Below are positions 9,100 to 28,225 of a DNA stretch of 64,000 nucleotides, one piece after another. The translations under genes and the position numbers were made by a program. This DNA comes from an uncultured Candidatus Saccharibacteria bacterium (GTDB lineage: Bacteria; Patescibacteriota; Minisyncoccia; Phycocordibacterales; JAACPR01). The stretch is taken from assembly GCA_964402215.1 (NCBI GenBank), contig CAYOAT010000001.1:134703-198702 (forward strand), in the 5' to 3' direction. The notes below the pieces were generated by a model. It was not told the DNA's origin. It worked only from the letters and a program-made list of their open reading frames with translations, and did not search any database. Every line of letters begins with the position of its first letter. Within the stretch, counting starts at the first letter, position 1.

Positions 9100-10203
9100 T
9101 TACCTATTCATTGGCATAACGAGGTACAAGAAACTTCTGTCTGTTGTTCCTTGGATAACCATTGGTTTTTCTGAACCACAAAATCTAAGTACAATCCCGT
9201 CCGACTTTATAGAGGCAAAACAATCATTTATATATTTACTATTAAAACTTAATTTTAGACTGTCCCCTGTAATTCTAGACTTGATATTATTTTTTGTTTC
9301 ACCAATTTCGCTTGAATTCGATTCTATTTGGAAAATTTCGTCCTTTGGTGAGATTATAAAAGTCACCTGATTAAATTTGTCGGTGAAGACATTTGAGACA
9401 CGGAGACTTTGCTGAAGATCATCTTTTAGAACGCTAATTTCAGTTTTAACTTCTTTTGGAATTATTTGTCGGTAGTCAGGAAAAACACCGTCTATAACGC
9501 GTGAAACGATAGTAATTTCGCTTGATTCAATGATCACGCGGTCCTGTTCAAAACAAATTTCTATTTCTTCATCAACGTCCTCCAGAGTCCTAATAATTTC
9601 AATAACGTTTTTGTATGGAATAAGTATATTTTCAAATAAATCAACGTTTTTTACTGAGATTCGACTTTCTGCCAATCGGAATGAGTCTGTGCCGACAAAG
9701 ACCAAATCTCCATCGTCAGAAAATATATAAACACTTGATAACTCTGGTTTGATGCTAGATGTCGCAGTGCTGTACCACACAGAATTTAAACCTTTTATAA
9801 AGTCAGAAGAGCTTAATTTAAACTTTTTACCTGACTTTTCATCAGAAATCACAGGAAAATCATCAATAGGTTGGATATTTATGATTGTGTCGGTTGATTC
9901 GCTAGTTAAATGTATTTTTGTTCCATCTGTTTCAATCCTAATATTTGAATCGTGCTTTGGTAGATTAGAAAGAAACGAGTTAAGAATTGTTGCAGGCACT
10001 AAAACTTTACCAATGTCACTCCCTTTTGCCCTAACAATAATTTTAAGACTAATATCAAGATTGGTTGAATTGATTACCAGGTCATTTCCATCAAAATCAA
10101 ACATAAGACACGCTAAAGCAGGTAAAGTAGAATTCTTTGTTGATATCTTTTCTGCCTTGCTAATTGCTTTCACCAATCTTTCTTTATTAATCTCTAATTT
10201 CAT
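9100..10203 (-). CDS. dnaN: DNA polymerase III beta sliding clamp
   Basis: 367 aa, MKLEINKERLVKAISKAEKI... three-domain clamp pattern. Directly downstream of dnaA. Confidence 0.9.
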   Translation of the reverse strand: MKLEINKERLVKAISKAEKISTKNSTLPALACLMFDFDGNDLVINSTNLDISLKIIVRAKGSDIGKVLVPATILNSFLSNLPKHDSNIRIETDGTKIHLTSESTDTIINIQPIDDFPVISDEKSGKKFKLSSSDFIKGLNSVWYSTATSSIKPELSSVYIFSDDGDLVFVGTDSFRLAESRISVKNVDLFENILIPYKNVIEIIRTLEDVDEEIEICFEQDRVIIESSEITIVSRVIDGVFPDYRQIIPKEVKTEISVLKDDLQQSLRVSNVFTDKFNQVTFIISPKDEIFQIESNSSEIGETKNNIKSRITGDSLKLSFNSKYINDCFASIKSDGIVLRFCGSEKPMVIQGTTDRSFLYLVMPMNR

Positions 10204-10429: not shown

Positions 10430-11779
10430 TTACAGCATCGACCGGATTTGGGTTAGCTGTTGGGAAAGAGAGTTATCTGTTTTTAGATCATTTTTTATTT
10501 TTTCACAAGAATGAATAACAGTTGTGTGATCACGTCCTCCTAATTTATCGCCAATTGTTGGATAAGAAATACTAAAGTCTTCTCTGAGGATGTACATAAC
10601 AATTTGGCGAGGACGAACGACTTCTTTTCGGCGGGTTTTATCACAGACACTGTGTTCTTCTATATTAAAGAAGTTGGCAACGATTTTTATAAGTTCATTA
10701 ACTGAAATCATTTTTTTTGGTTTTGCACTATTCTTAATCAAATCCTTGATTTCATTGAATGATAGAGCCTTACCTTTTAATTGGGTTTGGCAGATAATCG
10801 AATTTACAGCGCCCTCAAGCTCTCTAATGTTTCCCTCTACAGCCTTGGCTATGTAATCAAAGGTTTCCTTGTCCAAACGGATGTTATTTTTCTCTGCCTT
10901 AGAGCGTAAAATTGCGATACGTGACTCGTGATCAGGTGCAGTGATATCAACCATCATCCCTTGATTAAAACGAGATTTTAATCGGTCTTCTAACCCCGGA
11001 ATGAAGTTTGGGTGTTTATCTGATGAAAAGATAATTTGTTTGTTGTTATCGTATAAAGTGTTAAACAAATGGAATAATTCTTCTTGGGTTTTTTCTTTAC
11101 CAGAAAGAAATTGAATATCGTCCATAATTAAAACATCATATTTTCTATATTTATCTTTGAATAGGCTGACTTTGTTTGTTTGAACGGCATTAATATATTC
11201 AACAGTAAATTTTTCTGAAGTTAAATAAAAAACTCTTTTGTCAGGATTTTGAGTTTTTATTGTGTTACCAACCGCTTGGACCAAGTGAGTTTTTCCGTTT
11301 CCTGTGTTTCCATAAATGAACAGTGGATTGTAAACAATTCCTGGTTGTTTAATCACGGCTTGTGAAGCAGCGTGAGCAAGTTCATTGAACGGACCAATAA
11401 TAAAATTATCAAAAGTGTATCGTGGATTTAAATTATCTTCTTTATTTATATAAAAATCTGCTAGAGGAAGTTCGTTTGATTGAGTTTTTGGCTTTATAAC
11501 GACTACTTTCTTTGATTTATCATTTTTACAAACAGTGAATTCCAAGGATCTGATCTCATTGGAAATATCACGAAGGGTTTTTAGGATGTCTTTATGAAAT
11601 TTACTGTTTAGCCAGTCTTTTACGAAGCTGTTGGGTACGCCGACATGCACTACCCCGTCATCTATTTTTGTTATAAAAGTGTCCTTGAACCAAGTATTGA
11701 AATTCGCTTTGGAAATTTGGTTTTCTAGGATGTTTAGTGCATCCTCCCAGATATTTTTTTGTTCAAATATTCCAGACAT
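10430..11779 (-). CDS. dnaA: Chromosomal replication initiator DnaA
   Basis: AAA+ Walker A GNTGNGKTHL. Sensor motifs. C-terminal DnaA-box-binding HTH (RPRQIVMYILRE...GGRDHTTVIH). Confidence 0.92.
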   Translation of the reverse strand: MSGIFEQKNIWEDALNILENQISKANFNTWFKDTFITKIDDGVVHVGVPNSFVKDWLNSKFHKDILKTLRDISNEIRSLEFTVCKNDKSKKVVVIKPKTQSNELPLADFYINKEDNLNPRYTFDNFIIGPFNELAHAASQAVIKQPGIVYNPLFIYGNTGNGKTHLVQAVGNTIKTQNPDKRVFYLTSEKFTVEYINAVQTNKVSLFKDKYRKYDVLIMDDIQFLSGKEKTQEELFHLFNTLYDNNKQIIFSSDKHPNFIPGLEDRLKSRFNQGMMVDITAPDHESRIAILRSKAEKNNIRLDKETFDYIAKAVEGNIRELEGAVNSIICQTQLKGKALSFNEIKDLIKNSAKPKKMISVNELIKIVANFFNIEEHSVCDKTRRKEVVRPRQIVMYILREDFSISYPTIGDKLGGRDHTTVIHSCEKIKNDLKTDNSLSQQLTQIRSML

Positions 11780-11888: not shown

Positions 11889-12023
11889 ATGTCAATTACA
11901 TATCAACCAAAAAAAAGAAAGCGATCAAAAACACACGGATTTTTAGTTCGAAGTCGAAGCCCTGGAGGTAAAAAGGTGTTAAAAAGCCGAAGACAGAAGG
12001 GACGAAAGCGAATTTCAGTCTAA
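11889..12023 (+). CDS. rpmH: 50S ribosomal protein L34 (44 aa; absent from the ORF track because it is under 60 aa)
   Basis: Translation [44 protein letters not shown] matches the bL34 consensus (MKRTYQPSKRKR.KTHGFR.RM....GR.VL..RR.KGR..L). Its stop overlaps the rnpA start as TAATG. Confidence 0.85.
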
Positions 12024-12340
12024 TGTTTGCTAAAAAAAATAGAATATCTGCACTAGAAGTTCAAAAAATGTTCAGCAGTGACGTTAAAACGGCTCACTCT
12101 GAATTTTTTTTATTAAAGAAGAGATCAAATGATCTAGGATTATCAAGATTTGCGGTTTTAATACCAAAAAAAGTCTCCAAAACGGCAGTTCAAAGACACT
12201 TTGATAAAAGAATGGTTGTGTCGGCGATTCAAAAGGTTAATTATCCCGTTAGTTATGATTATGTTTTAACTTTAAAGAAAAGTATAAAAGAATCATCACT
12301 GGATGCAATAACCGCTGATTTGGTCAGAATTCTAATATAG
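12023..12340 (+). CDS. rnpA: Ribonuclease P protein component
   Basis: 105 aa basic protein immediately after rpmH. RLGLSVSKKV-like core (LGLSRFAVLIPKKVSKTAVQRHFDKR). Confidence 0.75.
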   Translation: MFAKKNRISALEVQKMFSSDVKTAHSEFFLLKKRSNDLGLSRFAVLIPKKVSKTAVQRHFDKRMVVSAIQKVNYPVSYDYVLTLKKSIKESSLDAITADLVRILI

Positions 12341-12357
12341 GGTATGATTTTATATAT

Positions 12358-13134
12358 ATGAAGGAAATATTCATCAACGTAGTCGTTCAGCCTTTTTACA
12401 ATGCCTTAATTTTATTAACTAATTTTGTTACAAGCGATTTGGGTATTGCTCTTATTATCTTAACTATAATTTTTCGTTTAGTTCTCTTCCCTCTTTACAA
12501 GAGTCAAATTAGAACGCAAATAAAAATGAATCAAATTCAGGAGCCTTTGAAAAAGATTCAAGAAAAATATAAAAATGACCGCGAGGCGTTGGGCAGAGAG
12601 ATGTTGAAACTTTATAAACAAAATAAAGTAAATCCGTTTTCTGGAATTCTTATTTTAATTATTCAGTTACCACTTCTACTTGGTTTTTATTATGTTTTTT
12701 CTAGAGCCGGATTACCAAACATTAACGAAAATCTTCTTTATTCATTTGTTCACTGGCCAGATAATTTGAGTACCGTTTTTCTTGGAATTATCGACATGAC
12801 TGGAAAAAGTTTACCTCTTGCAATAGCCGCTGCGGTCGCACAATTCTTTCAGATGCAGTTAATGCTTCCAAAAAAGAAAGCTGTTGATGAAACAAAGAAA
12901 ACCAACAATGTTTCGCCAGAGAATGTTATGAAAAGTATGCAAACACAAATGGCGTATGTCATGCCAGCAATGATGGGAATGTTTGCCTACACACTTGGTG
13001 CGATGCTGGGTCTATATTTTCTAGTCGGAAGTTTAATTTCTATTGGTCAAGAATTTTATATAAGAAAAAGTATAAAGGGTCCAGAAGAAGAACGCCTAAA
13101 GAAGGAAAAAGAATTGTCAGAGAAAATTATTTAG
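12358..13134 (+). CDS. yidC: Membrane protein insertase YidC (short Gram-positive-type form)
   Basis: 258 aa, five TM segments, conserved 60KD_IMP core. rpmH-rnpA-yidC synteny. Confidence 0.85.
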   Translation: MKEIFINVVVQPFYNALILLTNFVTSDLGIALIILTIIFRLVLFPLYKSQIRTQIKMNQIQEPLKKIQEKYKNDREALGREMLKLYKQNKVNPFSGILILIIQLPLLLGFYYVFSRAGLPNINENLLYSFVHWPDNLSTVFLGIIDMTGKSLPLAIAAAVAQFFQMQLMLPKKKAVDETKKTNNVSPENVMKSMQTQMAYVMPAMMGMFAYTLGAMLGLYFLVGSLISIGQEFYIRKSIKGPEEERLKKEKELSEKII

Positions 13135-14415: not shown

Positions 14416-14940
14416 CTAATCGGCCTCATTTGCAGAACCACCACCCGGCGGAGTAGGCGAAACATTCCCCCCTATTGGGCCTGCTGATGGAATGAATAGG
14501 CGCATTGAAGTAATTGAACTGTTAATTTGGTTCAAAATTAACCAGGATATTAGAGCAAGGATAAGACCAGCAATGGCTGATTGAATTTTAGTTAGACCTT
14601 CCTTTTTTTCGAAAACCGCGTCCGTTGTCATATATTGTATAGAACCTAGAACAATATATAGAATAGCAAGTACTAGTGCTATAACAATCATCCACTTGAA
14701 TACCTTTGCCAGAATTCCACCAGTTGAGTCGAAATCAGATTCAACAAAAAGACCATTGCCACTACCGGTATCAGTTAGTGGCACATAACTATCAAGAGCT
14801 TGTGCGGCTTGCTCATTCTGTGTCAAATTTTTAGTATCAGTATTCCCAAAATTAATAGTTATTAAAACCGAGATTAATATAACTAAAAAAGTTAGTGTGG
14901 CCGACACAAGCATTATTTTTTTATTAAGAATATTTATCAT
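14416..14940 (-). CDS. VirB2/TrbC-like pilin candidate
   Basis: 174 aa. Long N-terminal signal/TM, hydrophilic spacer, then two closely spaced hydrophobic helices (ILAKVFKWMIVIALVLAILYIVLG / IQSAIAGLILALISWLILNQI) and a Gly/Pro tail. This is the topology of T4SS pilins. Sits in the T4SS-like operon. Confidence 0.4.
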   Translation of the reverse strand: MINILNKKIMLVSATLTFLVILISVLITINFGNTDTKNLTQNEQAAQALDSYVPLTDTGSGNGLFVESDFDSTGGILAKVFKWMIVIALVLAILYIVLGSIQYMTTDAVFEKKEGLTKIQSAIAGLILALISWLILNQINSSITSMRLFIPSAGPIGGNVSPTPPGGGSANEAD

Positions 14941-14942
14941 AA

Positions 14943-16013
14943 TTAAAATCGTGAATCATTATTTTTATAATATTGTACCTCCGTTATTTTCGTAGCCTTT
15001 ATAAATGGGTTTGCAAGGTTATTAATGGTAACAGAAAAATATGCTGAACCGTTTGTATTTTCTTCGTTTGCAAAAACTATATAGTTTGCCGTATCTGATA
15101 TATTTAATTTTGTGATTCCTCTATACCACTCGTATCTCAAGTCCTTTAAAGCATTTTTATCAAAAAAGAACGGTGAGATATAAATTTTTATCTCGTCACT
15201 ATTCAACATAATTTTATCACTTAAATCTTTATTTGAAAAAATTCCAAGAGAAGGGCTATTCTCATAGAAAATAGGTAATGGTTTTATAAACCTAAAACTC
15301 TCGATTGTTTTATTGGTTATGCTCTCATTTACTACTTTAATTGAGACGGTAATCATTACTTCCGTGGTGTAATTTTCTGGTTTAAAATAGAGAATATTTT
15401 TTCCTGCTCCTGATGCCTGAATATTTGTTTCGCCGTTAATTCTCCATGTGAAAACTATATTATCGTCGTCAATTCTTTTTCTGTCATACCCGAGTAGGTT
15501 TGTGACGGCAACAAATTCGATCTGTGACCCTTTTGATGGGAGACGCTTGCCTTTATAAAATGGGAAAGTTGTTGTCTGTGCCTCGTAAAATATTGATAAT
15601 TCTGATGCCGATACAGTCTCAGTTGCAGTGTATTCCAAACCACGACTTTTTACCACAACTTTTACTTTTGTGTCCCCTCCGATATCACCTACTTTTGTAT
15701 TAATTTCTTTTAAGCCAAGTCCACTTGTAATCAATTTGTCATTAACATACCAAAATATTGTTGATTCATTAAGTGATAGAGATTGACTCTCAACAATAAC
15801 TGTCACTGGACTGTTAGGCGTAGGGTTTGATGGACTAAATAATAAATTAACAGATGGTTTTCTCATTTCAAGTGAAGAGGGTATCGAATCCCCGGAGTTT
15901 TCAACCGAGCTTGTATCAATATCAGTCCAAGTTGTTTGCGCCGACAGATTGAATATTGGTAAAAAACAAAAAATCAGTGAACTAAATAGTAATGTTAATA
16001 TAAAACGTTTCAT
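14943..16013 (-). CDS. Secreted beta-rich protein in the T4SS-like operon, unknown function
   Basis: Signal peptide MKRFILTLLFSSLIFCFLPIFNLSAQ, 356 aa. Confidence 0.5.
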   Translation of the reverse strand: MKRFILTLLFSSLIFCFLPIFNLSAQTTWTDIDTSSVENSGDSIPSSLEMRKPSVNLLFSPSNPTPNSPVTVIVESQSLSLNESTIFWYVNDKLITSGLGLKEINTKVGDIGGDTKVKVVVKSRGLEYTATETVSASELSIFYEAQTTTFPFYKGKRLPSKGSQIEFVAVTNLLGYDRKRIDDDNIVFTWRINGETNIQASGAGKNILYFKPENYTTEVMITVSIKVVNESITNKTIESFRFIKPLPIFYENSPSLGIFSNKDLSDKIMLNSDEIKIYISPFFFDKNALKDLRYEWYRGITKLNISDTANYIVFANEENTNGSAYFSVTINNLANPFIKATKITEVQYYKNNDSRF

Positions 16014-16072: not shown

Positions 16073-16471
16073 TTATACTTTCTTTGTGATAACCGCCTTC
16101 CCTATTTTTGCGACATCAGCCAAGTCGCCACTTGTGTCACCACTGTCTTCTTTCCATGTCTGTCTGATTGTCAGAATTACGCCAATAGTAGTTAGACAGA
16201 AATCAATGACAGGTATAGGTAGCAGTTCGCCAATACTACTAACCCAAAACTTTCCACCAGATTTTGGACTACTTAGTTTTATATTTGAAGCCATGAACCA
16301 AATAGAAAAACTGATAAGCGCAAAAATATCAGGAATATATGCTAATACAACTCCGACAAACGGTAATAAATCAAACAAAAACTCCATTAGATCAAAGAAA
16401 ATGGCCAACATCACCATGCTCGCGGCCGACATTTTCGAAATTCTTCTATATTTATCATTTTCTTGCGCCAT
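16073..16471 (-). CDS. Small polytopic membrane protein in the T4SS-like operon
   Basis: 132 aa, three hydrophobic segments. Co-directional and tightly spaced with virB4. Preferred over the overlapping + strand ORF 16065..16484. Confidence 0.4.
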   Translation of the reverse strand: MAQENDKYRRISKMSAASMVMLAIFFDLMEFLFDLLPFVGVVLAYIPDIFALISFSIWFMASNIKLSSPKSGGKFWVSSIGELLPIPVIDFCLTTIGVILTIRQTWKEDSGDTSGDLADVAKIGKAVITKKV

Positions 16472-16476
16472 CTTTT

Positions 16477-18360
16477 TTATTTAAACCCCTCCAAATCTTT
16501 TTGAATTTTTCTGACATTCGATTCTTGAGTAGAAACGTTTTGTGCAGAGTCGTGTAACATTTGTTTGTTTTTTCTAATATCCAAAACTTGCGCAGGGTTT
16601 GAAGTAATTAGTTGGTCTTCGGCATATGAACCAATAACTTTGATGGCTACGTGTTTTAACCCAGCAAAGAATATTCCCTCCCCGACATCTGATTCCAAGA
16701 GTAAATATTTTTCCTCGTCAGTTAAGTTGAAGGTTTTTTGGACAATATCAATTGATGATACAGATTGTTTCATCAACATTTGCATAGACGAGTTGCTGAT
16801 AATTGGAATTCCATACGGAGAATTCAAAAAGTCTTCAACGTCCTGGGTGATAGTTGAAAGACCTAGATAATATTTTCTTCCTCTTTTTGCCAAACTAAAC
16901 AAAAATGATGCAGTGTCTTCTGATTTCATCATCCACCAAGCCTCGTCGATAACAAGTAATCTTTTTCTGAGATCCTTTCTAATCGCGGTCCAAATATGGT
17001 GTGTGACCAAATACATCGCAATAGGTTTTAGCTCGTCCTCCATGTCTCGTAGAGAGAAAACAATAAAGTTTTTATTTATATCGACATTTGTTGGTTTGTT
17101 GATGAAACCTGACCAAGTTCCCTTTGTATATTTTGTCAGTTTTTGCGCTAAATTTTCCGCACCTTCCATACCACCCAGAACCAATTCAAAGTCAGTCATC
17201 ATTGGGGGTTCGATTTGTGAAAAATCAGATTCAGGCGTGATATCCTTTAAAGCATAAGTTTCTGAAATTGCACGGTCTATTATTGCATCTTCCTCTGGAG
17301 TCAAACCTCCGAACATTAATCTAAATAAACCAACAAGGTTTACAATGTTTGAACGTAAAACATCAGATGGTTGTTCATCTGGTCGTGGAGCCGGAATATC
17401 AAACGGATTAATGTGGTGATTTGAAGTTAAAGAAATATTAAAGAATCTACCGCCCGTTGCTTCGGCCATATATTCATATTCCCTTTCTGGGTCGATAACA
17501 ATAACTTCTACGCCAAACATTAGGGATCTTAGTATTTCAAGTTTTGTTGTATAAGATTTTCCTGCACCGGCCTTTGCAAATGTTACCGAATTATAATTTT
17601 CAAGTGAAAATCTGTCGAACAAAACGAGACCAGAATTGTGTCTGTTAATTCCATATAAAATACCCTTATCGGCGGTTAATTCGAATGAAATGAATGGAAA
17701 AATACTAGACAATGGCTCAGAATTTAATTTTGTATGTATACCAAGTAAATCTGTGGCAATTGGAATAATGCTCTTGAAACCCTCTTCCTGTTGAAAAACG
17801 GCCGGTTTTACATAAACTAATTTCGCTTCAAGAATTGATTTTATTTCAGATTCAACTTTATCAAGTTCGTCATCAGAACTACCATATATAGATAGATATA
17901 AACCAACGTCAAAAATCTTTTCTTGGGCTTGTTGTAGGTTGTCGCGCAATGTTTCAAGATCTCTAAATGCCGTGTCCAATTGTGGATCACGAACCAAGCC
18001 TTTCTCCATTCGCATATTAATTTGGCTTTCGACTTCCGCAACTTTTTTCTGGAACTGGCGCAAAATGACTGTGGTATCGATTGGGTGAACGAAAATTGAA
18101 ATATCAAAAACCTTGTCTAGGTTTATTATTGGAGAGAACCAATTGTCAGATAAAAATCTTGGATAAGAAATAACAAAAAAACTTCTAACAATTCTGTCAC
18201 CAAGGCTTAATTCACGAGGGGAAACTTTTAAAGCGGGAGGAGCAATAATATCCTTTAATTCCAAAACACCTGCCTCATAAATTTGCTGTGGTAAAAATGA
18301 AGTAATTTTTGGTGCTTCTGTTTTAGAACTTTTTCCTTTTATAAAATCTAATATTCCCAT
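16477..18360 (-). CDS. virB4: VirB4/TrbE/CagE-family T4SS ATPase (ATPase and middle domains)
   Basis: Walker A FAKAGAGKSYTTK. Walker B LLVIDEAWWMM. Conserved GLSTITQDVEDF C-terminal motifs. About 260 residues precede Walker A, i.e. the usual N-terminal domain is absent here and lies on the upstream ORF. Confidence 0.85.
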   Translation of the reverse strand: MGILDFIKGKSSKTEAPKITSFLPQQIYEAGVLELKDIIAPPALKVSPRELSLGDRIVRSFFVISYPRFLSDNWFSPIINLDKVFDISIFVHPIDTTVILRQFQKKVAEVESQINMRMEKGLVRDPQLDTAFRDLETLRDNLQQAQEKIFDVGLYLSIYGSSDDELDKVESEIKSILEAKLVYVKPAVFQQEEGFKSIIPIATDLLGIHTKLNSEPLSSIFPFISFELTADKGILYGINRHNSGLVLFDRFSLENYNSVTFAKAGAGKSYTTKLEILRSLMFGVEVIVIDPEREYEYMAEATGGRFFNISLTSNHHINPFDIPAPRPDEQPSDVLRSNIVNLVGLFRLMFGGLTPEEDAIIDRAISETYALKDITPESDFSQIEPPMMTDFELVLGGMEGAENLAQKLTKYTKGTWSGFINKPTNVDINKNFIVFSLRDMEDELKPIAMYLVTHHIWTAIRKDLRKRLLVIDEAWWMMKSEDTASFLFSLAKRGRKYYLGLSTITQDVEDFLNSPYGIPIISNSSMQMLMKQSVSSIDIVQKTFNLTDEEKYLLLESDVGEGIFFAGLKHVAIKVIGSYAEDQLITSNPAQVLDIRKNKQMLHDSAQNVSTQESNVRKIQKDLEGFK

Positions 18361-18365
18361 GATAA

Positions 18366-18986
18366 TTATTGTTTAGTTGGTGAATTAACTTCGCTTGGAT
18401 TGAATATTTTGTAATAAATTTCGATTATTTCTTCCGTTCCAAGGCGGGCGACGCGCACACCGCACCTACTAATTCCCTGTTTAACCACAGAAACTCTTTG
18501 CTCCAGCTGACTTCGACTTTCTTCAAAATCGTCAGCAACCTGTTGAACCTTTGTTTTTTTATTTCCGCCAAACATTTTGCTGCCTTTTGATAAGTTAAGT
18601 CCTGGCGGAGTATAAGGAATGACAATAAAAAAGTTTTTTGTCATTATATTTACACTTTCGGTAAAAGTTTTAATAAAGTTTATGTATTCTTTTGATTGAA
18701 TTCGAAGCAAATCATTTGTCTGCGATTTGGTTTTATCTTCCAACATCGCCAGATAGGGTCTAATATCAAGCTTTCTTGATTGTATAAAAATTTGAATTGT
18801 AAAATCTAATGAGTTAAGAAAATTTTGAAATTGAAAAATTATCGCTTCCTGTTCGTCCTGGGATTTTAAAGCAAAGTTAAGAGACGAGGTCATCATAATT
18901 GCGCGCATCGATCCATCTTTCAATATAGCAACGCCATCCCTGACCTCTTTTATTGGAACAAAATCTTGTGATGTTTTTGGTACCAT
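18366..18986 (-). CDS. Stand-alone VirB4 N-terminal (CagE_TrbE_VirB-like) domain protein
   Basis: 206 aa. ...VPIKEVRDGVAILKDGSMRAIMMTSSLNFALKSQDEQEAIIFQFQNFLNSL... aligns by eye with the VirB4 N-terminus (YLPYIGHLSDHIVLLEDGSIMSIARIDGVAFELEE...AFNTLFRNI). Stop is 5 nt upstream of the virB4 ATG in another frame. Confidence 0.5.
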   Translation of the reverse strand: MVPKTSQDFVPIKEVRDGVAILKDGSMRAIMMTSSLNFALKSQDEQEAIIFQFQNFLNSLDFTIQIFIQSRKLDIRPYLAMLEDKTKSQTNDLLRIQSKEYINFIKTFTESVNIMTKNFFIVIPYTPPGLNLSKGSKMFGGNKKTKVQQVADDFEESRSQLEQRVSVVKQGISRCGVRVARLGTEEIIEIYYKIFNPSEVNSPTKQ

Positions 18987-19028
18987 TTGAAATTATTATA
19001 CACTATATTATCTACACCCCTAAACTTG

Positions 19029-19436
19029 CTATTCGATTTTCTCTTTAATGTCCAAACTCCAAGATAAGTCTTTCAATTTGCTGTCAGAGAGCTTGGGCAA
19101 AAACATTCCTGGATCAATAGCGGCTTCTGCGTTACCTTTTGCTTCTATTTTCTTTGGTATTTTTTTCCAAATATAAATTTTACTGCCTGTAAAATATTTT
19201 ACAGAATTCTCAAATGTTTGGACAAAAGGTTGCCATCCATCAAATTTAAAAAAAGCAAACATAAGGAAAAGAGCAACAACAGGAATGCCTAGAATAATAG
19301 CAATTATTTTTGGAAAGATGCTCCAAATAATAAACCCTATTCCAGCAGCACCACCGACGTACAAAAATTGTTTTGCCGTTAATGGGCCGAATATTTTGTC
19401 TTCAACCCCGATAAATTGTGGAACTTGATATTTCAT
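19029..19436 (-). CDS. VirB3/PrgI-like small two-TM membrane protein
   Basis: 135 aa. Two adjacent TM helices (FLYVGGAAGIGFIIWSIF / IIAIILGIPVVALFLMFAFF) near the N-terminus. Immediately upstream of the VirB4 ORFs, as in Gram-positive-type T4SS. Confidence 0.4.
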   Translation of the reverse strand: MKYQVPQFIGVEDKIFGPLTAKQFLYVGGAAGIGFIIWSIFPKIIAIILGIPVVALFLMFAFFKFDGWQPFVQTFENSVKYFTGSKIYIWKKIPKKIEAKGNAEAAIDPGMFLPKLSDSKLKDLSWSLDIKEKIE

Positions 19437-20071: not shown

Positions 20072-22210
20072 TTATGATTTTGGAGTAGCTGGAGGAGTTG
20101 GACCGGCACCCTTGCTCATTTCGGCTGTCAGGGTTTTTATCAATTGCGCCATAGCTTTTTCATCATTGCTCTTGTACATACTCTTTACTCGATCTTCAAT
20201 TGCTTTATTTTGTCCCTGCGTTAGTGGAATTATTTCATTAGCAAATTTTCTAATACCCAGATTTGGATCGCTACCCAATATTTTTTTGGCTTCCCTTTTC
20301 TCAATTGAATTCTTTAGAGATTCCAAACTTGCGGAAGTTGCGGTAAGCTCAGACTCATCTTCATTATTGTTTTCAATTTGTGCCGTAATTGCTTCGACGT
20401 CTCTCAAGGCTAAGTCGGCTTGATTTCTATAGTTGTTTGCTCCAATTATGTCACCAGCAGCTTCAAGTTTTACAGCCTCGGCAGAGAAATTCTTTGCCTC
20501 ATCCTTAACTACGTTAAGCTGGGTTTGTAAATCTTTTTGTCTTTGTCTAATACCCTCAAGTTGTGTCTTGGTTCGTGCAAGTTCACTTTCGGCTTCCTTA
20601 TATTCATTATCATCTCTAGCACTTGCAAGTGCGCGTCTCTGAATATCTGCATCTTGACCTCTTCCCGTCAAACCAAGTCTTTCATTTCTGTCAGCGATTT
20701 CTTTTGCAGCATCCTTAGTTTCCTTTTCAAATGTTGAACTCGAACCTTTGCCGGCATCAAGACCTGAAAGTTTTAATAATTCAGCAGCACCCCTAGTGTT
20801 TCTGATATCAAAAGTACTTTTTGCAGCTTTATTTCCAACATCGGATATACCTCGGCCAACAAAGTTCGCAGCAAAATTATTTCCGACACGACGTTTGAAT
20901 CTCGCCCCAAAACTATCGCCCTCTGCAGTTTTCCAATTTTGTAGAGTTGAGCTTGTTTTAGCTAATCTGTTTCCAACTCCACCAATAAGTTTTCTACCAG
21001 CAAATGCGCCCATACCCATTGCCATTCCCATACCTGCTTCTGCACCATGTGCACCTGATTGCTTTCCAACTATAACTGCTCCTATTAAAAATGAAGTAAC
21101 AATTATAAAGTTCAAGATTATACTAAAGGCACCACCATTACCCCCATGTTCGTTAGCTTCAGCAATGTTCCCCCACGCCGATACTCCGTTTGCGACATTT
21201 GTTGCTGAATCAATAAAACCTGGACCCGCAAGCTGATATGAAATATATAAAAAGAGAAACATGGCTGGAAGTGAAATTAAATGGCTTAATAGGCTTGTTG
21301 ACCATTTTTCAGTGTACTTACTTAATACGGGCAATATCCACCCACCGAACATTATAGGTGAAGCAATTAATAGAAAAATTAAACTTATAAATCTCGTAAA
21401 TACAACTATTGCAACTGCAAAAAAAACAATTGCAGCTATTACCAAAAATATAGCGACGAGGATATAAATACCAGCCTTTTTATAGTTGTCGGTTTCTCTT
21501 GCTAGGGCTGGATCACTATCCATATCATAGAACAGTGTAAAACCAAGTCTTTGCATAAAACAATTTGATAAACCACCGTCAGTAAAATAACGCTCATCTT
21601 GAGGTGTTAGGGCTTCAGGATTATCACCGACAGTGACTGTTGGTGCGTTGCAGCCATTCATATTGTCATAGAAACTAAGCGCTAGGACATTTGAAACGTC
21701 GATAGCCACCGATGTAAAAAAGAAGCTAAAATTGATTAGTAGGGCACTCATTATAATTTGGCCCAATCTTTTTTTGCTATTCTCTGACCAACCACCAATT
21801 ATAGTCGTAATTGATAGGTACAAAAGGCCGAAAATAAAGAATAAATTTAATACATCACGGAAAATACTCCAAGCATTTGCAATGGCGTTGGTATCTTTAA
21901 TAATTCTGGCCATTTGTGTTACTCCAATATAAATAACAAAGTTTAGAAAAGTTCCTGAAAGCCATATGATCCATGCACATAGTCTAAAAAATAGTTTAGC
22001 AATCCCTAATATCAAATATCCAAATGCAGTTCTGAGTGCCTCGCCAATGCCCAAAATGGAGCTATCCTCGGTTTCTGCTGCTTTGTTTTCTGCCGGCGCG
22101 GCTTGCGCAATATGAGTTGAAATTATAAAAATAAACGCAATGGCAATTATCAACAAAATAAAAGCCAGTAACGTATTTTTTTTATATGAATTTAATTTCA
22201 ATTTAAACAT
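20072..22210 (-). CDS. VirB6/TrbL-like polytopic inner-membrane protein with Gly-rich segment and about 300-aa C-terminal coiled-coil extension
   Basis: Signal peptide, at least 6 TM segments, GMGMAMGMGAFAG Gly-zipper, long charged coiled-coil tail. Architecture of VirB6/TrbL (or Gram-positive TcpH/PrgH-like) channel proteins. Confidence 0.5.
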   Translation of the reverse strand: MFKLKLNSYKKNTLLAFILLIIAIAFIFIISTHIAQAAPAENKAAETEDSSILGIGEALRTAFGYLILGIAKLFFRLCAWIIWLSGTFLNFVIYIGVTQMARIIKDTNAIANAWSIFRDVLNLFFIFGLLYLSITTIIGGWSENSKKRLGQIIMSALLINFSFFFTSVAIDVSNVLALSFYDNMNGCNAPTVTVGDNPEALTPQDERYFTDGGLSNCFMQRLGFTLFYDMDSDPALARETDNYKKAGIYILVAIFLVIAAIVFFAVAIVVFTRFISLIFLLIASPIMFGGWILPVLSKYTEKWSTSLLSHLISLPAMFLFLYISYQLAGPGFIDSATNVANGVSAWGNIAEANEHGGNGGAFSIILNFIIVTSFLIGAVIVGKQSGAHGAEAGMGMAMGMGAFAGRKLIGGVGNRLAKTSSTLQNWKTAEGDSFGARFKRRVGNNFAANFVGRGISDVGNKAAKSTFDIRNTRGAAELLKLSGLDAGKGSSSTFEKETKDAAKEIADRNERLGLTGRGQDADIQRRALASARDDNEYKEAESELARTKTQLEGIRQRQKDLQTQLNVVKDEAKNFSAEAVKLEAAGDIIGANNYRNQADLALRDVEAITAQIENNNEDESELTATSASLESLKNSIEKREAKKILGSDPNLGIRKFANEIIPLTQGQNKAIEDRVKSMYKSNDEKAMAQLIKTLTAEMSKGAGPTPPATPKS

Positions 22211-24368: not shown

Positions 24369-27353
24369 TTGATTATAATGCAGAATAAGATGTTTTTATC
24401 TGTTAGACAAAATAAATTTTGGTTTTTTTCTTTAAGATCTATTTTTACCACCATAATTTTTGTTTTAATTTTTTCTAATGTTGATATCAAGTTTGCAAAC
24501 GCTGTTGGTTGGGTTGGTATACCATCGGATTTTTATTCAGCAGGTGCGGTAATGCCTTACGGAGGACAAAGTATTTTAGGCATGTTTTGCCCATGCTCTA
24601 AGGGAAACATTTTTCTTATGCACGATTACAGAACAAGGATGATGTTTCCTGTTTTCCAGGATTTTGCTGAAACAATTTACCATACTAAGCAAAATCTCCC
24701 TGCACTACTTTCACCTGGAAATTACCAGTTAGGAAATTTGGAAGGAGAAACTGAATGTATCGTCGGTGTACCGCCATATTGTCTTGATTTTCTATCAATA
24801 CCAGCATTTAAAATAAAAAACTTTGGTAATGGTGGAATTGTGGCTGCTGGAGGCAATCCAATAAACCCACTAGCCTGGGTTGCACTTGGAACAGCCGCGG
24901 CGATATATGGTTGGTCACTTATTTATGCTGATGGAGATGATGGAACAGCTGAAGGTAGCCCCGGCTGTAATGCCAAATTAACCAAAGTTTGGTTCTGTGG
25001 TAAAGAGCATGGACCAATGGTGGCACATTTTGAAACGCCAGGAAGAACATCTTGGCCACAGAAACAAGATGGAGGTGGTCCAATTGAATATTTATATACA
25101 TGGAGCGGAGCGATTTCTGGTGAAGGGCAGACGCGAACCGTAAATTTCCCGACTCAGGGTTTGAAAAATGTTAAAGTAAAAGTTAAAGATTCATCAAAGG
25201 CCGAACTTTCTAGAGATTGTCCACCAGTTATTGTGGCAAAGCAATCGCCAACAGTTAATCCAAGCTCAAGTGATTTAAATGTTTCATGTACAGTAAGTAA
25301 AACCGTTGTAAATACCGGCGATCGGGTCACCTTTTCTCTAGAAGTCTTTGGTGGCAGCGGGGGCTCTGAATATAGATGGTATGGCGACGTTACGAGCGCG
25401 ACAACAACCTACGCAACTTCCTCGTCCTCTTGGTACAATGAAAATTATATAGATAAATCATTTACGTCAGCAGGAACAAAAATTGTCAGTGTTATGGTCT
25501 CTGATAGTAACGGTAATACCGCACTTAGATATTGCGCGCCAGTTGTAGTGAAAAACGAGGCAGAAACTTTGATGTGCGGTAGAAACTATTTAAATTTAAC
25601 TTGTACAGTTGATAAAAGATCTGTTAATCCGGGAGAGACAATTACCTACTCTGCCAATGGGGCTGGAGGAACGCCGGAACCGGCAATTATGCTTAACGGC
25701 TTAATATATTTAAATGGAAAAAAAGTTGACTGGTTAAAAGTCTGCCAGAACAGCAAAAATTTAGTTAATATGTTTACGTATTACGGAGATTGGAATAGTT
25801 CGAACCTTCCTCATGCCGGAGATATGGTAGAAGTGTCAATTCGATCAATTGATGGTCGTTATGAATTAAAGGGTGAAGCCGAGTGGCCAGAGAGCGGCTG
25901 CGGACCAGAGGGCGGTCAAACATATGATTCATGTGCTGGTTCAGGAGCACCGACAGACGGAGGTTTATCCTGTCCTGGAGCAACACCAACAATACCACCA
26001 GTAAATCCTGTTGAGTGTCCAGATTACTCTGGATCAGCTCCTGCTACTGCCGGATTGGAACCAATTACTTCTTCAACCAATTTAGTTTCATTTGCTGAAA
26101 AAAATGGAGTTGTGTCAATGGAAGCCGAACACTACAAATCACAGACCGGGTACTCTCTTTACAGTAATTCTGAAGCATCGGGTGGAAAAATTATGCAGGT
26201 TGGCGCCGGTGGAAGTCTAAATTTTGAATTCAATATAACAAACCCAGGAACTTGGTATCTATGGATCAGAACCCATGTTACAGATTCGAATAACAACGGC
26301 ATGTATATTAAATTAAATGGTTCCGATCTACGTCATTCAAGCGGAATAAATGATATATATTTAAGCAAAAATGGTTGGTCTTGGATGCCAGAGTGGTTAT
26401 TTGGTGAATCAGATCACAATGGTCCTATTAGTTTTAGATTAAACTCTGGTAAAAATACTATCTCTATTACAAAGAGAAAAATTGAACAACCAATAATAGA
26501 TAAAATTGTTTTAACCAGAACAAATAATCCACCAACTGGTTTTGGACCTGCCGAAACAACTGCGTCGTCAGCGGGGACAACTCCAATAACCGATCCAATT
26601 TCTAATCCTGGCGCAACAGATTTTGCTGCAGTCACGGGACACAGAGCTAGTTTCTTGTTTGATGATGCGGATACACGTGTCATGAACATTTTGTCGCCAA
26701 GGTTATCTAATTCAAGATTTGAACAAATTTTGTCGAGGACGAAAGGAAATGGTGATAATGCAATTTATTTGTTCTTAATCAATCAGGGAGACGGACCTTA
26801 TACGCCACACACATTTTATAAAGATGACCGAATTGGTGGTCAAATTGATAGTGCCAAACTCTCAATATATAAGCAGAGATTAGATGCAATCAAGTCTTTG
26901 GGTTATAAAGTAATATTTTGGATACGCGCTGATGATTCTAGAACAATGATGCAAGAATCAATACAAAATTATAAAAAATACCATCAAGATATTGTTGATA
27001 ATTTTAGTTCATATGCCGACGGATATGTAATTGGTTTAGAGTCAAACGAATATATGGATGCCTCGACCGAAAAAACACTGATCGCTGATATGAAATCGAG
27101 AACAAATAAGACGGTTGGTGTACATTATGGGTCAAGCGATAGTTATAATTCTAGGGCGAAAAATAGTGGAGCTGATATATACTATAGGCAATACGGGTGG
27201 GTATCTTGTAGCAAAGTTGTATCGGTAACAGCTACTACAATTTCGGCAGTTTCTCCAATGAAAGTTGTGGCTGCTGAGTATGATAAAGATTCTGATAGTG
27301 GTTGTGGAGCAGGTGCCCTTCAAGCAGGAGCAATCGGTTACGGAAATGGATAG
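24369..27353 (+). CDS. Large (994 aa) secreted or membrane-anchored surface protein: Cys-rich N-domain, Ig/PKD-like repeats, CBM-like beta-sandwich, C-terminal clan GH-A-like TIM-barrel region
   Basis: N-terminal hydrophobic anchor. Repeated ...V(S/T)CTV(S/D)K..VN(T/P)G(D/E).(V/I)T(F/Y)S... Ig-like modules. Trp/Tyr-rich 'AEHYKSQTGY...WYLWIRTH' CBM-like block. GLESNEY resembling the Asn-Glu acid/base motif of clan GH-A. GC about 45-50%, above neighbours. Start ambiguous (24369/24378/24390). Confidence 0.7.
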   Translation: MIIMQNKMFLSVRQNKFWFFSLRSIFTTIIFVLIFSNVDIKFANAVGWVGIPSDFYSAGAVMPYGGQSILGMFCPCSKGNIFLMHDYRTRMMFPVFQDFAETIYHTKQNLPALLSPGNYQLGNLEGETECIVGVPPYCLDFLSIPAFKIKNFGNGGIVAAGGNPINPLAWVALGTAAAIYGWSLIYADGDDGTAEGSPGCNAKLTKVWFCGKEHGPMVAHFETPGRTSWPQKQDGGGPIEYLYTWSGAISGEGQTRTVNFPTQGLKNVKVKVKDSSKAELSRDCPPVIVAKQSPTVNPSSSDLNVSCTVSKTVVNTGDRVTFSLEVFGGSGGSEYRWYGDVTSATTTYATSSSSWYNENYIDKSFTSAGTKIVSVMVSDSNGNTALRYCAPVVVKNEAETLMCGRNYLNLTCTVDKRSVNPGETITYSANGAGGTPEPAIMLNGLIYLNGKKVDWLKVCQNSKNLVNMFTYYGDWNSSNLPHAGDMVEVSIRSIDGRYELKGEAEWPESGCGPEGGQTYDSCAGSGAPTDGGLSCPGATPTIPPVNPVECPDYSGSAPATAGLEPITSSTNLVSFAEKNGVVSMEAEHYKSQTGYSLYSNSEASGGKIMQVGAGGSLNFEFNITNPGTWYLWIRTHVTDSNNNGMYIKLNGSDLRHSSGINDIYLSKNGWSWMPEWLFGESDHNGPISFRLNSGKNTISITKRKIEQPIIDKIVLTRTNNPPTGFGPAETTASSAGTTPITDPISNPGATDFAAVTGHRASFLFDDADTRVMNILSPRLSNSRFEQILSRTKGNGDNAIYLFLINQGDGPYTPHTFYKDDRIGGQIDSAKLSIYKQRLDAIKSLGYKVIFWIRADDSRTMMQESIQNYKKYHQDIVDNFSSYADGYVIGLESNEYMDASTEKTLIADMKSRTNKTVGVHYGSSDSYNSRAKNSGADIYYRQYGWVSCSKVVSVTATTISAVSPMKVVAAEYDKDSDSGCGAGALQAGAIGYGNG

Positions 27354-27424: not shown

Positions 27425-28225
27425 TTAATTGATATTCTTTACCAATTCTCGCCAGTCAACAAGCGATAACTCCTCTGCCCTAACGTTTATATTAAAATTA
27501 TTGTTTGAAATTATATTTTTCTCATCAAAATTAAATTTTTCTTTCAGATTTGAGAAAAGTTTTTTTCTTTTATGTGCGAAACCGGTTTTTAAGATTTTAA
27601 AAAATATATCCTCGTCCACATTATTTTCTACAAAGAATTTTTTTGAAATAGAATCGAACAAAACAATTGCTGAATCCACGCTTGGTGCCGGAACAAATGA
27701 CCCCGCTTTAACAGTTTCAATAAATTTCGGATTACAATAAACTTTTGTGGCAATTGATAAAATACTTTCCTTTCCATCACGAGCAATTATTCTATCTGAT
27801 ACCTCTTTCTGAATTAATAAAACCATTTTTTCTGGTTGATTATTCCCTGTCAAAAATTTTCTAATAATTTCTCCAGTAATATAGTAAGGAATATTTGCAA
27901 TTAATTTATATTTATTTTCTTTTAGACTCTCTATTGAACTCGGATCAAATTTCAGAATGTTGTCTTTTATTAAAATCATTTTTTTTGATTTTATTTCGCT
28001 GGCAAATTTGTCCTCAAGAAATTTAATCATTTCTGTGTCGGTTTCTACGGCAATAACCATTGCGCCGGCTGCCAACAAATATTCGGTCAAAGCACCTTTT
28101 CCAGGCCCAATTTCAAGTATAAAATCATTACTAGAAACATTGCCCGCATCAACTATTTTTTGCAGTGCCGATTTTGATTGTAAGAAATGCTGCCCAAGTG
28201 ATTTTTTCGCGTACATTTTGTTCAT
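27425..28225 (-). CDS. rsmA: 16S rRNA (adenine1518/1519-N6)-dimethyltransferase RsmA/KsgA
   Basis: SLGQHFL, SAM-binding EIGPGKGALT, 266 aa. Confidence 0.85.
   Translation of the reverse strand: MNKMYAKKSLGQHFLQSKSALQKIVDAGNVSSNDFILEIGPGKGALTEYLLAAGAMVIAVETDTEMIKFLEDKFASEIKSKKMILIKDNILKFDPSSIESLKENKYKLIANIPYYITGEIIRKFLTGNNQPEKMVLLIQKEVSDRIIARDGKESILSIATKVYCNPKFIETVKAGSFVPAPSVDSAIVLFDSISKKFFVENNVDEDIFFKILKTGFAHKRKKLFSNLKEKFNFDEKNIISNNNFNINVRAEELSLVDWRELVKNIN

Follow-up and report, generated by a model that had tools for sequence, protein, structure and literature searches.

A probable two-gene VirB4 ATPase in the origin-proximal type IV secretion cluster of an uncultured Patescibacteria bacterium

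Is a VirB4-type ATPase whose N-terminal part lies in a separate reading frame a damaged gene, or is it a protein made of two chains? The question is raised by a stretch of 64,000 nucleotides (nt) from an uncultured Candidatus Saccharibacteria bacterium (contig CAYOAT010000001.1), the whole of which is called the window here. In this window an open reading frame (ORF) of 627 amino acids encoding an ATPase of a type IV secretion system (T4SS) is preceded by an ORF of 206 amino acids. A preliminary description of the sequence had proposed that the smaller ORF is the missing piece of VirB4, had left genuine gene fission, programmed frameshifting and inactivating mutation side by side as explanations, and had named alignment to VirB4 profiles and comparison of orthologous loci among the checks. 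Our analysis indicates that the pair is very probably a genuine and conserved two-gene VirB4, in which ORF1, a TrsD-like protein (about 200 amino acids), constitutes the first half of the N-terminal domain and ORF2 constitutes the second half of that domain together with the RecA-like ATPase.

Two reading frames and the position of the break

The features of the pair are as follows.

18366..18986, minus strand: ORF1, 206 amino acids; TrsD-like or 'TraC-like' protein (PF26593), read here as the separately encoded first half of the VirB4 N-terminal domain
18361..18365, minus strand: 5-nt spacer TTATC between the ORF1 stop codon TAA (18366-18368) and the ORF2 start codon ATG (18358-18360)
16477..18360, minus strand: ORF2, VirB4-type ATPase, 627 amino acids
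18262..18360, minus strand: ORF2 residues 1-33, N-terminal peptide (MGILDFIKGK...) followed by a variable linker
17668..18261, minus strand: ORF2 residues 34 to about 231, second half of the VirB4 N-terminal domain, upstream of the region matching 4AG5
16477..17667, minus strand: ORF2 residues 232-627, VirB4 C-terminal RecA-like ATPase domain and C-terminal tail
17554-17577, minus strand: Walker A, AKAGAGKS, ORF2 residues 262-269
16942-16959, minus strand: Walker B, LLVIDE, ORF2 residues 468-473

Analysis of the ORFs and their junction confirmed the sizes, the 5-nt distance and the different frames given in the preliminary description, ORF2 being in frame -1 relative to ORF1. The junction contains no homopolymer of five or more bases, as had also been stated; the nearest run, of five A, lies 26 nt inside ORF2. 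A TAA codon is present in the ORF2 frame four codons upstream of the ORF2 ATG, and the two open frames therefore overlap by only about two codons (about AAA-CAA).

Comparison with protein families identified ORF2 as a VirB4-type ATPase. It matches NF045971 (CD1110 family VirB4-like ATPase) at positions 184-733 of 752 (expectation value (E) 6e-106) with a score of 355.5 bits, above the curated cutoff of 325; its score for TIGR00929, 104.8 bits, is below the cutoff of 643. In phmmer the C-terminal ATPase domain of Thermoanaerobacter VirB4, known from a crystal structure (4AG5), matches residues 232-586 (E 1.3e-40). Foldseek comparison with this structure gave a target-normalised template-modelling score (TMt) of about 0.7, and the Pfam family P-loop_TraG matches ORF2 with E 1.7e-22. 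Both Walker motifs are intact, and Walker A begins at residue 262, in agreement with the earlier estimate of about 260 residues. Proteins of a T4SS are encoded alongside, with PrgI and T4SS_pilin above the Pfam cutoffs and TrbL/VirB6 just below. A complete N-terminal domain of about 400 residues was not found in ORF2, where the ATPase domain is preceded by only about 230. Mean column identity over residues 34 to about 231 is 85% across 32 species, and this part was modelled as a folded alpha/beta subdomain.

The missing first part of the ORF2 N-terminal domain is ORF1, as had been proposed, because its profile matches, its fold match to TrwK (the VirB4 of plasmid R388) and its collinearity at 50-53% identity with fused VirB4 proteins all point to this piece. 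Four VirB4-type models in NCBIfam were matched by ORF1 at extreme N-terminal positions, with matches to positions 2-117 of 752 in NF045971 (CD1110; E 5e-8), 103-233 of 894 in NF045975 (E 5e-12) and 8-172 of 792 in TIGR00929 (E 2e-4). The profile alignment thus gives ORF1 the N-terminal and ORF2 the remaining positions of VirB4-type models. The TrsD/TraD model NF041427 matches ORF1 over its full length (positions 14-199 of 201, E 1.6e-5). The 'TraC-like' family PF26593 appears in the precomputed annotation of ORF1 and of all its 120 best homologues and is absent from the local hmmscan result. The resemblance to the CagE_TrbE_VirB domain claimed in the preliminary description was not borne out, as PF03135 was not found by Pfam for either ORF at E of 0.1 or below.

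The AlphaFold2 model of ORF1 has a predicted local distance difference test score (pLDDT) of 87.5, and its top 14 Foldseek matches are all R388 TrwK/VirB4 chains (probability 1.0; query-normalised template-modelling score, TMq, 0.50-0.62), the next match having an E of 0.3. Comparison of the ORF1 family profile with the chains in the PDB by sequence gave nothing meaningful, the best match being a ketoacyl-ACP reductase with E 0.93; among solved structures VirB4 was recovered for ORF1 by comparison of folds only. No transmembrane segment was predicted in ORF1, and the protein is predicted to be soluble.

The position of the break was mapped on TrwK, for which residues 15-400 are assigned to the N-terminal domain and residues from 400 onwards to the C-terminal domain (PMC9259494). 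TrwK residue 446 aligns with ORF2 residue 257, which, with the TrwK domain limits, assigns about 210-230 residues of ORF2 to the N-terminal domain. The split is therefore in the middle of the N-terminal domain, at about TrwK residue 190, and not at the boundary between this domain and the ATPase domain, where the preliminary description had placed it. A model of the concatenated ORF1 and ORF2, built from an alignment that includes natural fusions, aligns with full-length TrwK over 832 columns (E 7e-27, template-modelling score 0.55-0.57).

Alignment with 30 fused relatives revealed that the break lies between a conserved ...YNP motif at the end of ORF1 and a conserved ...AP..(E/K) motif near ORF2 residue 40. 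The segment around the break is variable, and split forms have about 23 more residues here than fused forms. In the concatenated model residues 200-239 have a pLDDT below 50, which is consistent with a break that falls in a flexible linker predicted to be disordered.

The new N-terminus of ORF2 is itself conserved. The motif M-[GSA]-[ILF]-[FL]-D-[FK]-[LIF]-K-x-K-K (residues 1-11, 18328-18360) occurs in 54 split Paceibacteria loci and is shared with TrsE/TraE of the staphylococcal plasmid pSK41 (L092:26584-26620); it is absent from the fused forms. The TrsD-like partner may dock to this conserved peptide.

The models of ORF1 and of the N-terminal subdomain of ORF2 have a similar order of secondary structures: three strands, helix, strand, two helices, strand, helix, strand, helix. 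Because of this similarity an internal duplication within the VirB4 N-terminal domain was considered, in which ORF1 would correspond to ORF2 residues 34-232. It found no support in sequence (hhalign probability 0.2%, E 0.28).

Conservation of the two-gene form and its single-chain relatives

The same pair of 206 and 627 amino acids with an identical 5-nt gap is present in the JGI and ENA assemblies, and a Logan contig that ends inside the ATPase gene has the identical junction. A total of 80 loci from different species were fetched, and both genes are present in 77 of them; the remaining three either stop at the edge of a contig or lack a clean downstream ATPase match. Comparison of these orthologous loci revealed that the split is conserved: a separate ORF1 stop codon followed by the ATPase's own ATG was found in about 75 of the 77 species loci, L035 and L084 giving no clean junction. 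A table of 85 junctions, which adds the window and seven further fetched loci to the 77 species loci, has frame relation 0 in 17 cases, +1 in 37 and +2 in 31. The two genes lie from 1 nt to about 500 nt apart and occasionally overlap slightly. Spacers of 420-500 nt were observed in four species (L021:4619-5114, L026:4625-5045, L054:4625-5088 and L073:1498-1978). The closest relative, with 89% identity, has a 4-nt gap and frame +1, as against +2 in the window, and a relative with 82% identity has a 2-nt gap. In all loci the ATPase alignment begins within the first 25 residues, and in most at residue 1.

Lengths across 54 species are 202-224 amino acids for ORF1 and 599-692 amino acids for ORF2. 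Synonymous sites are saturated; the ratio of non-synonymous to synonymous substitution rates (dN/dS) was estimated at 0.045 in ORF1 and 0.026 in ORF2. Both proteins are under strong purifying selection.

A total of 7955 ORF1 homologues were detected. All of the 120 best stand alone, with lengths of 202-226 amino acids and 64-100% identity, and come from Candidatus Paceibacterota and related Patescibacteria; at the 50% cluster level stand-alone proteins account for 149 of the 150 best representatives. Three TrsD-like representatives of 406-443 amino acids (P0143, P0163 and P0193) carry C-terminal tails of at least 200 residues that are of low complexity and rich in proline, glutamine, alanine and threonine. 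Other TrsD-like representatives of 280-440 amino acids probably carry such tails too.

The one fused protein among the 150 representatives is P0244, with 797 amino acids. A search with this protein revealed a large clade of single-chain proteins of 775-807 amino acids (P0244, P0271-P0389) with both PF26593 and ATPase domains, whose named members are mostly labelled Candidatus Colwellbacteria. Thirty of these naturally fused VirB4 proteins are collinear with ORF1 plus ORF2 over the full length at 50-53% identity. Two short proteins occur in the fused clade, P0289 (600 amino acids) and P0385 (601 amino acids). P0289, the one checked, was considered as an independent fission and rejected: a run of N marking a scaffold gap lies inside the N-terminal region of its metagenome-assembled contig (L090:1212-1668), and its shortness is an artefact.

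The break is also found outside the Patescibacteria. In the staphylococcal plasmids pSK41/pGO1 (MPF_FATA, pGO1 subclass), as in the window, a VirB3-like gene is followed by TrsD (227 amino acids) and then by a DUF87 ATPase (672 amino acids); the order PrgI/VirB3, TrsD-like protein, shortened ATPase is common to the window, pSK41 and the 77 species loci. In BLASTP the alignment of ORF2 with the pSK41 ATPase begins at residue 3 of the former and residue 2 of the latter (ILDFIKGK and IMAFLKKK, E 1e-34), so that the two proteins have the same break point, and both N-termini have the form I-[LM]-x-F-[IL]-K-x-K. The match of the ORF1 family profile to pSK41 TrsD in hhalign is weak and full-length (167 columns, E 3.3e-4, probability only 38%), and identity to pSK41 is very low, about 16% for TrsD and 23% for the ATPase. 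A difference is that pSK41 is plasmid-borne and conjugative, with a relaxase and a coupling protein, whereas the window cluster is chromosomal and origin-proximal (a relaxase was sought only among the scanned neighbours).

The order PrgI, TraC-like protein, ATPase was likewise found in pXO1 (B. anthracis), pRSJ2_3 (C. botulinum) and pGspE55-1 (Geobacillus). Their ATPases have 620-636 amino acids and start at the equivalent of query residues 24-37; the adjacent DUF87 or ATP-binding ATPase is annotated in the Geobacillus and C. botulinum plasmids and was located by tblastn in pXO1. Their TraC-like proteins are longer, at 261-318 amino acids. The two genes overlap by 11-14 nt in pGspE55-1 and pRSJ2_3, and the spacing in pXO1 is about 2 nt (tblastn). 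Identity of the proteins of these three plasmids to those of the window is 22-30%.

A neighbour-joining tree of the ATPase part, crude and with only two Firmicutes outgroups, places fused and split forms as reciprocally monophyletic, so that the direction of change rests on the break point shared with pSK41. The split probably arose long ago and is common to these loci and the pGO1/pSK41 subclass of monoderm systems, and the single-chain form of Colwellbacteria is probably a secondary re-fusion in which about 23 junction residues were deleted. In comparison with single-chain VirB4/TraC-type proteins (R388 TrwK, the CD1110 family, Colwellbacteria), ORF1 and ORF2 together cover the whole protein; the differences are that the chain is broken inside the N-terminal domain and that about 23 extra residues are present at the new N-terminus.

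Two chains for one ATPase and the competing explanations

The choice of fission, frameshift or inactivation left by the preliminary description is settled in favour of fission by the variation in frame, the separate start and stop codons, and the dN/dS values. A sequencing or assembly error, that is, a 1-nt indel splitting one virB4 gene artificially, would produce just such ORFs 5 nt apart in different frames, and both the existence of fused relatives and the one apparent short form that turned out to be an assembly-gap artefact speak in its favour. Its probability is nonetheless negligible, given that the two-ORF structure is identical in three independent assemblies and that about 75 of 80 other species have the split, with each of the three frame relations represented and up to about 500 nt between the genes; moreover, a stop codon precedes the ORF2 ATG in its own frame, and the conserved N-terminal motif begins at the methionine of ORF2. 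The same start codon and motif argue against a programmed -1 ribosomal frameshift or read-through that would yield a single-chain VirB4. Although the -1 frame of ORF2 and the very short spacer would suit this mechanism, no slippery heptamer of the type X XXY YYZ was found in the frame overlap, the frame relation varies (0, +1, +2) even between the window and its 89%-identity relative, and several relatives have spacers of 100-500 nt, which makes such recoding extremely improbable. Seen in one genome alone, a nonsense or frameshift pseudogene would resemble a broken essential ATPase. That the T4SS ATPase is a decaying pseudogene is hardly credible, however, with dN/dS of 0.03-0.05 for both parts, lengths conserved across the 54 species, intact Walker A and B, a syntenic cluster as a whole, and a homologous TrsD gene reported to be essential in Candidatus Southlakia epibionticum (PMC12102498).

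A different reading takes ORF1 as an independent accessory factor descended from the VirB4 N-terminus, such as an adaptor, a regulator or an assembly chaperone binding PrgI/VirB3, and not as an obligate part of the ATPase. TrsD homologues of Gracilibacteria are not adjacent to virB4 (PMC12102498), some homologues carry the long low-complexity tails, ORF1 evolves faster than ORF2 (57-66% against 70-77% identity), and ORF1 is predicted to fold confidently alone. On the other side, the fused relatives hold the same module at the same position with 50% identity, the ATPase of the split lineages has no replacement for the first half of its N-terminal domain, and adjacency is near-universal in this clade; we consider the accessory role very unlikely. 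A related proposal holds that the split is not neutral: TrsD would be an adaptor deciding which ATPase protomers dock to PrgI/VirB3, the MGIFDF...KK peptide would be the docking element, and the Colwellbacteria form would be a re-fusion of an ancient split shared with pGO1/pSK41. A separate subunit could then let the cell set the stoichiometry, or exchange the first half of the N-terminal domain. The R388 VirB4 N-terminal domain mediates dimerisation and binds VirB3 and the VirB8 tails (PMC9259494), the same region contacting VirB3 in the 'central' protomers and the VirB8 tails in the 'outside' protomers. As a whole this proposal is unlikely.

Under the two-gene reading, ORF1 and ORF2 would be made from one transcript, since no terminator-like site lies between them, and their 5-nt spacing suggests coupled translation. 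The two polypeptides would then associate non-covalently, with ORF1 completing the N-terminal domain of ORF2, as adjacency, co-conservation and collinearity with the fused forms suggest; the succession of the genes for PrgI, ORF1 and ORF2 corresponds to the N-to-C order of VirB3-VirB4. The assembled VirB4 would form the hexameric motor of the origin-proximal chromosomal T4SS typical of Patescibacteria.

Several observations weigh against this account. The concatenated AlphaFold2 model is only moderate (pLDDT 70.7; predicted template-modelling score, pTM, 0.54) and comes without inter-chain confidence, and the physical association of ORF1 and ORF2 is a proposal. The TrsD score of ORF1, 24.8 bits, is far under the NF041427 cutoff of 200, and the probability of the hhalign match to pSK41 TrsD is low. 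The basis of ORF2 initiation is a further point, as no Shine-Dalgarno sequence is recognisable before its ATG. Parsimony and the crude tree are the grounds for preferring ancient fission with later re-fusion to independent fissions at one linker.

Signals for expression were sought across the cluster, in a window with a G+C content of 34.8%. The scan for promoters and terminators gave counts equal to the shuffled expectation, with no terminator between ORF1 and ORF2, and no Shine-Dalgarno sequence is visible before ORF1. An extended -10-like element, TGTATAAT, is present at 18995-19002 (minus strand) and ends 8 nt upstream of the ORF1 ATG; the promoter scan does not list it because it has no -35 match. 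It hints at an internal promoter with a very short or absent leader.

The surrounding cluster and the meaning of the split form

The neighbouring genes are as follows.

20072..22210, minus strand: polytopic membrane protein of 712 amino acids; weak TrbL/VirB6 match (PF04610, E 6.4e-5, 23.3 bits against a cutoff of 25.9); syntenic in relatives
19029..19436, minus strand: PrgI family (VirB3-like) membrane protein (PF12666, E 1.3e-10), immediately upstream of ORF1
16073-16471, minus strand: membrane-protein ORF of 132 amino acids; no significant Pfam match
14943-16013, minus strand: ORF of 356 amino acids; no significant Pfam match
14416..14940, minus strand: T4SS pilin (VirB2-like), 174 amino acids (PF18895 T4SS_pilin, E 8e-8, above cutoff), located between the ORFs of 356 and 425 amino acids
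13127-14404, minus strand: ORF of 425 amino acids; no significant Pfam match
12358-13134, plus strand: yidC (Pfam match)
12023-12340, plus strand: rnpA (Pfam match)
10430-11779, minus strand: dnaA (Pfam match)
9100-10203, minus strand: dnaN (Pfam match)
27425-28225: ksgA (Pfam match), a few kb beyond the cluster

The position of PrgI is conserved in relatives and in Firmicutes plasmids. In the 82%-identity relative (L004) the genes of 356/358 and 425/429 amino acids have the same order and sizes, and the 132-amino-acid gene is absent. In the window this ORF starts 5 nt after the ORF2 stop (16472-16476); in L004 the ATPase gene has a gap of 74 nt after it. An ORF of 994 amino acids (24369-27353), at the cluster's far end and on the opposite strand, matches only a GH115 C-terminal domain (E 1.8e-6).

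The T4SS cluster extends from 13127 to about 24239 on the minus strand, directly beside the origin markers dnaN, dnaA, rnpA and yidC. T4SSs of Patescibacteria are often found beside dnaA, dnaN, rnpA and ksgA (Quinonero-Coronel et al., Microb Genom 2025, PMC12102498), and the context of the cluster matches the origin-proximal location reported there for Paceibacteria. According to the same study TrsD is the most abundant T4SS component in Patescibacteria, has remote homology to the VirB4 N-terminus, and adjoins virB4 in 1664 of 2272 cases. The chromosomal T4SS of that study shares with the window a PrgI/VirB3, a TrsD-like protein, VirB4, a VirB6-like protein and a VirB2-like pilin, as well as the adjacency of TrsD to virB4, the dnaA/dnaN/rnpA/ksgA neighbourhood and the phylum, the relatives being labelled Paceibacterota/Parcubacteria. 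The window is an instance of this Patescibacteria TrsD and VirB4 T4SS, from which it differs in nothing substantive.

The arrangement, which the preliminary description did not recognise, is thus already known, with existing Pfam and NCBIfam families and the relation of TrsD to VirB4 in the 2025 literature. That study gives a 'remote homology' and no function for TrsD; here the TrsD and VirB4 pair is collinear at about 50% identity with single-chain VirB4 proteins from a sister clade, and the position of the break is mapped. The additions made here are modest: the exact break point in a linker in the middle of the N-terminal domain, which is that of pSK41, the peptide conserved at the junction, and a sister clade whose VirB4 is a single chain.

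In genome annotation it would be wrong to mark the pair as a disrupted or frameshifted virB4. Where a pipeline demands a match to a full-length VirB4 profile, the ATPase of about 600 amino acids may score too low and its partner of about 200 amino acids may be left as 'hypothetical'. Epibiotic growth of Patescibacteria reportedly requires their T4SS, of which TrsD, a protein with no assigned function, is the most widespread component. Identification of TrsD as half of the VirB4 N-terminal domain would give it a concrete and testable structural role.

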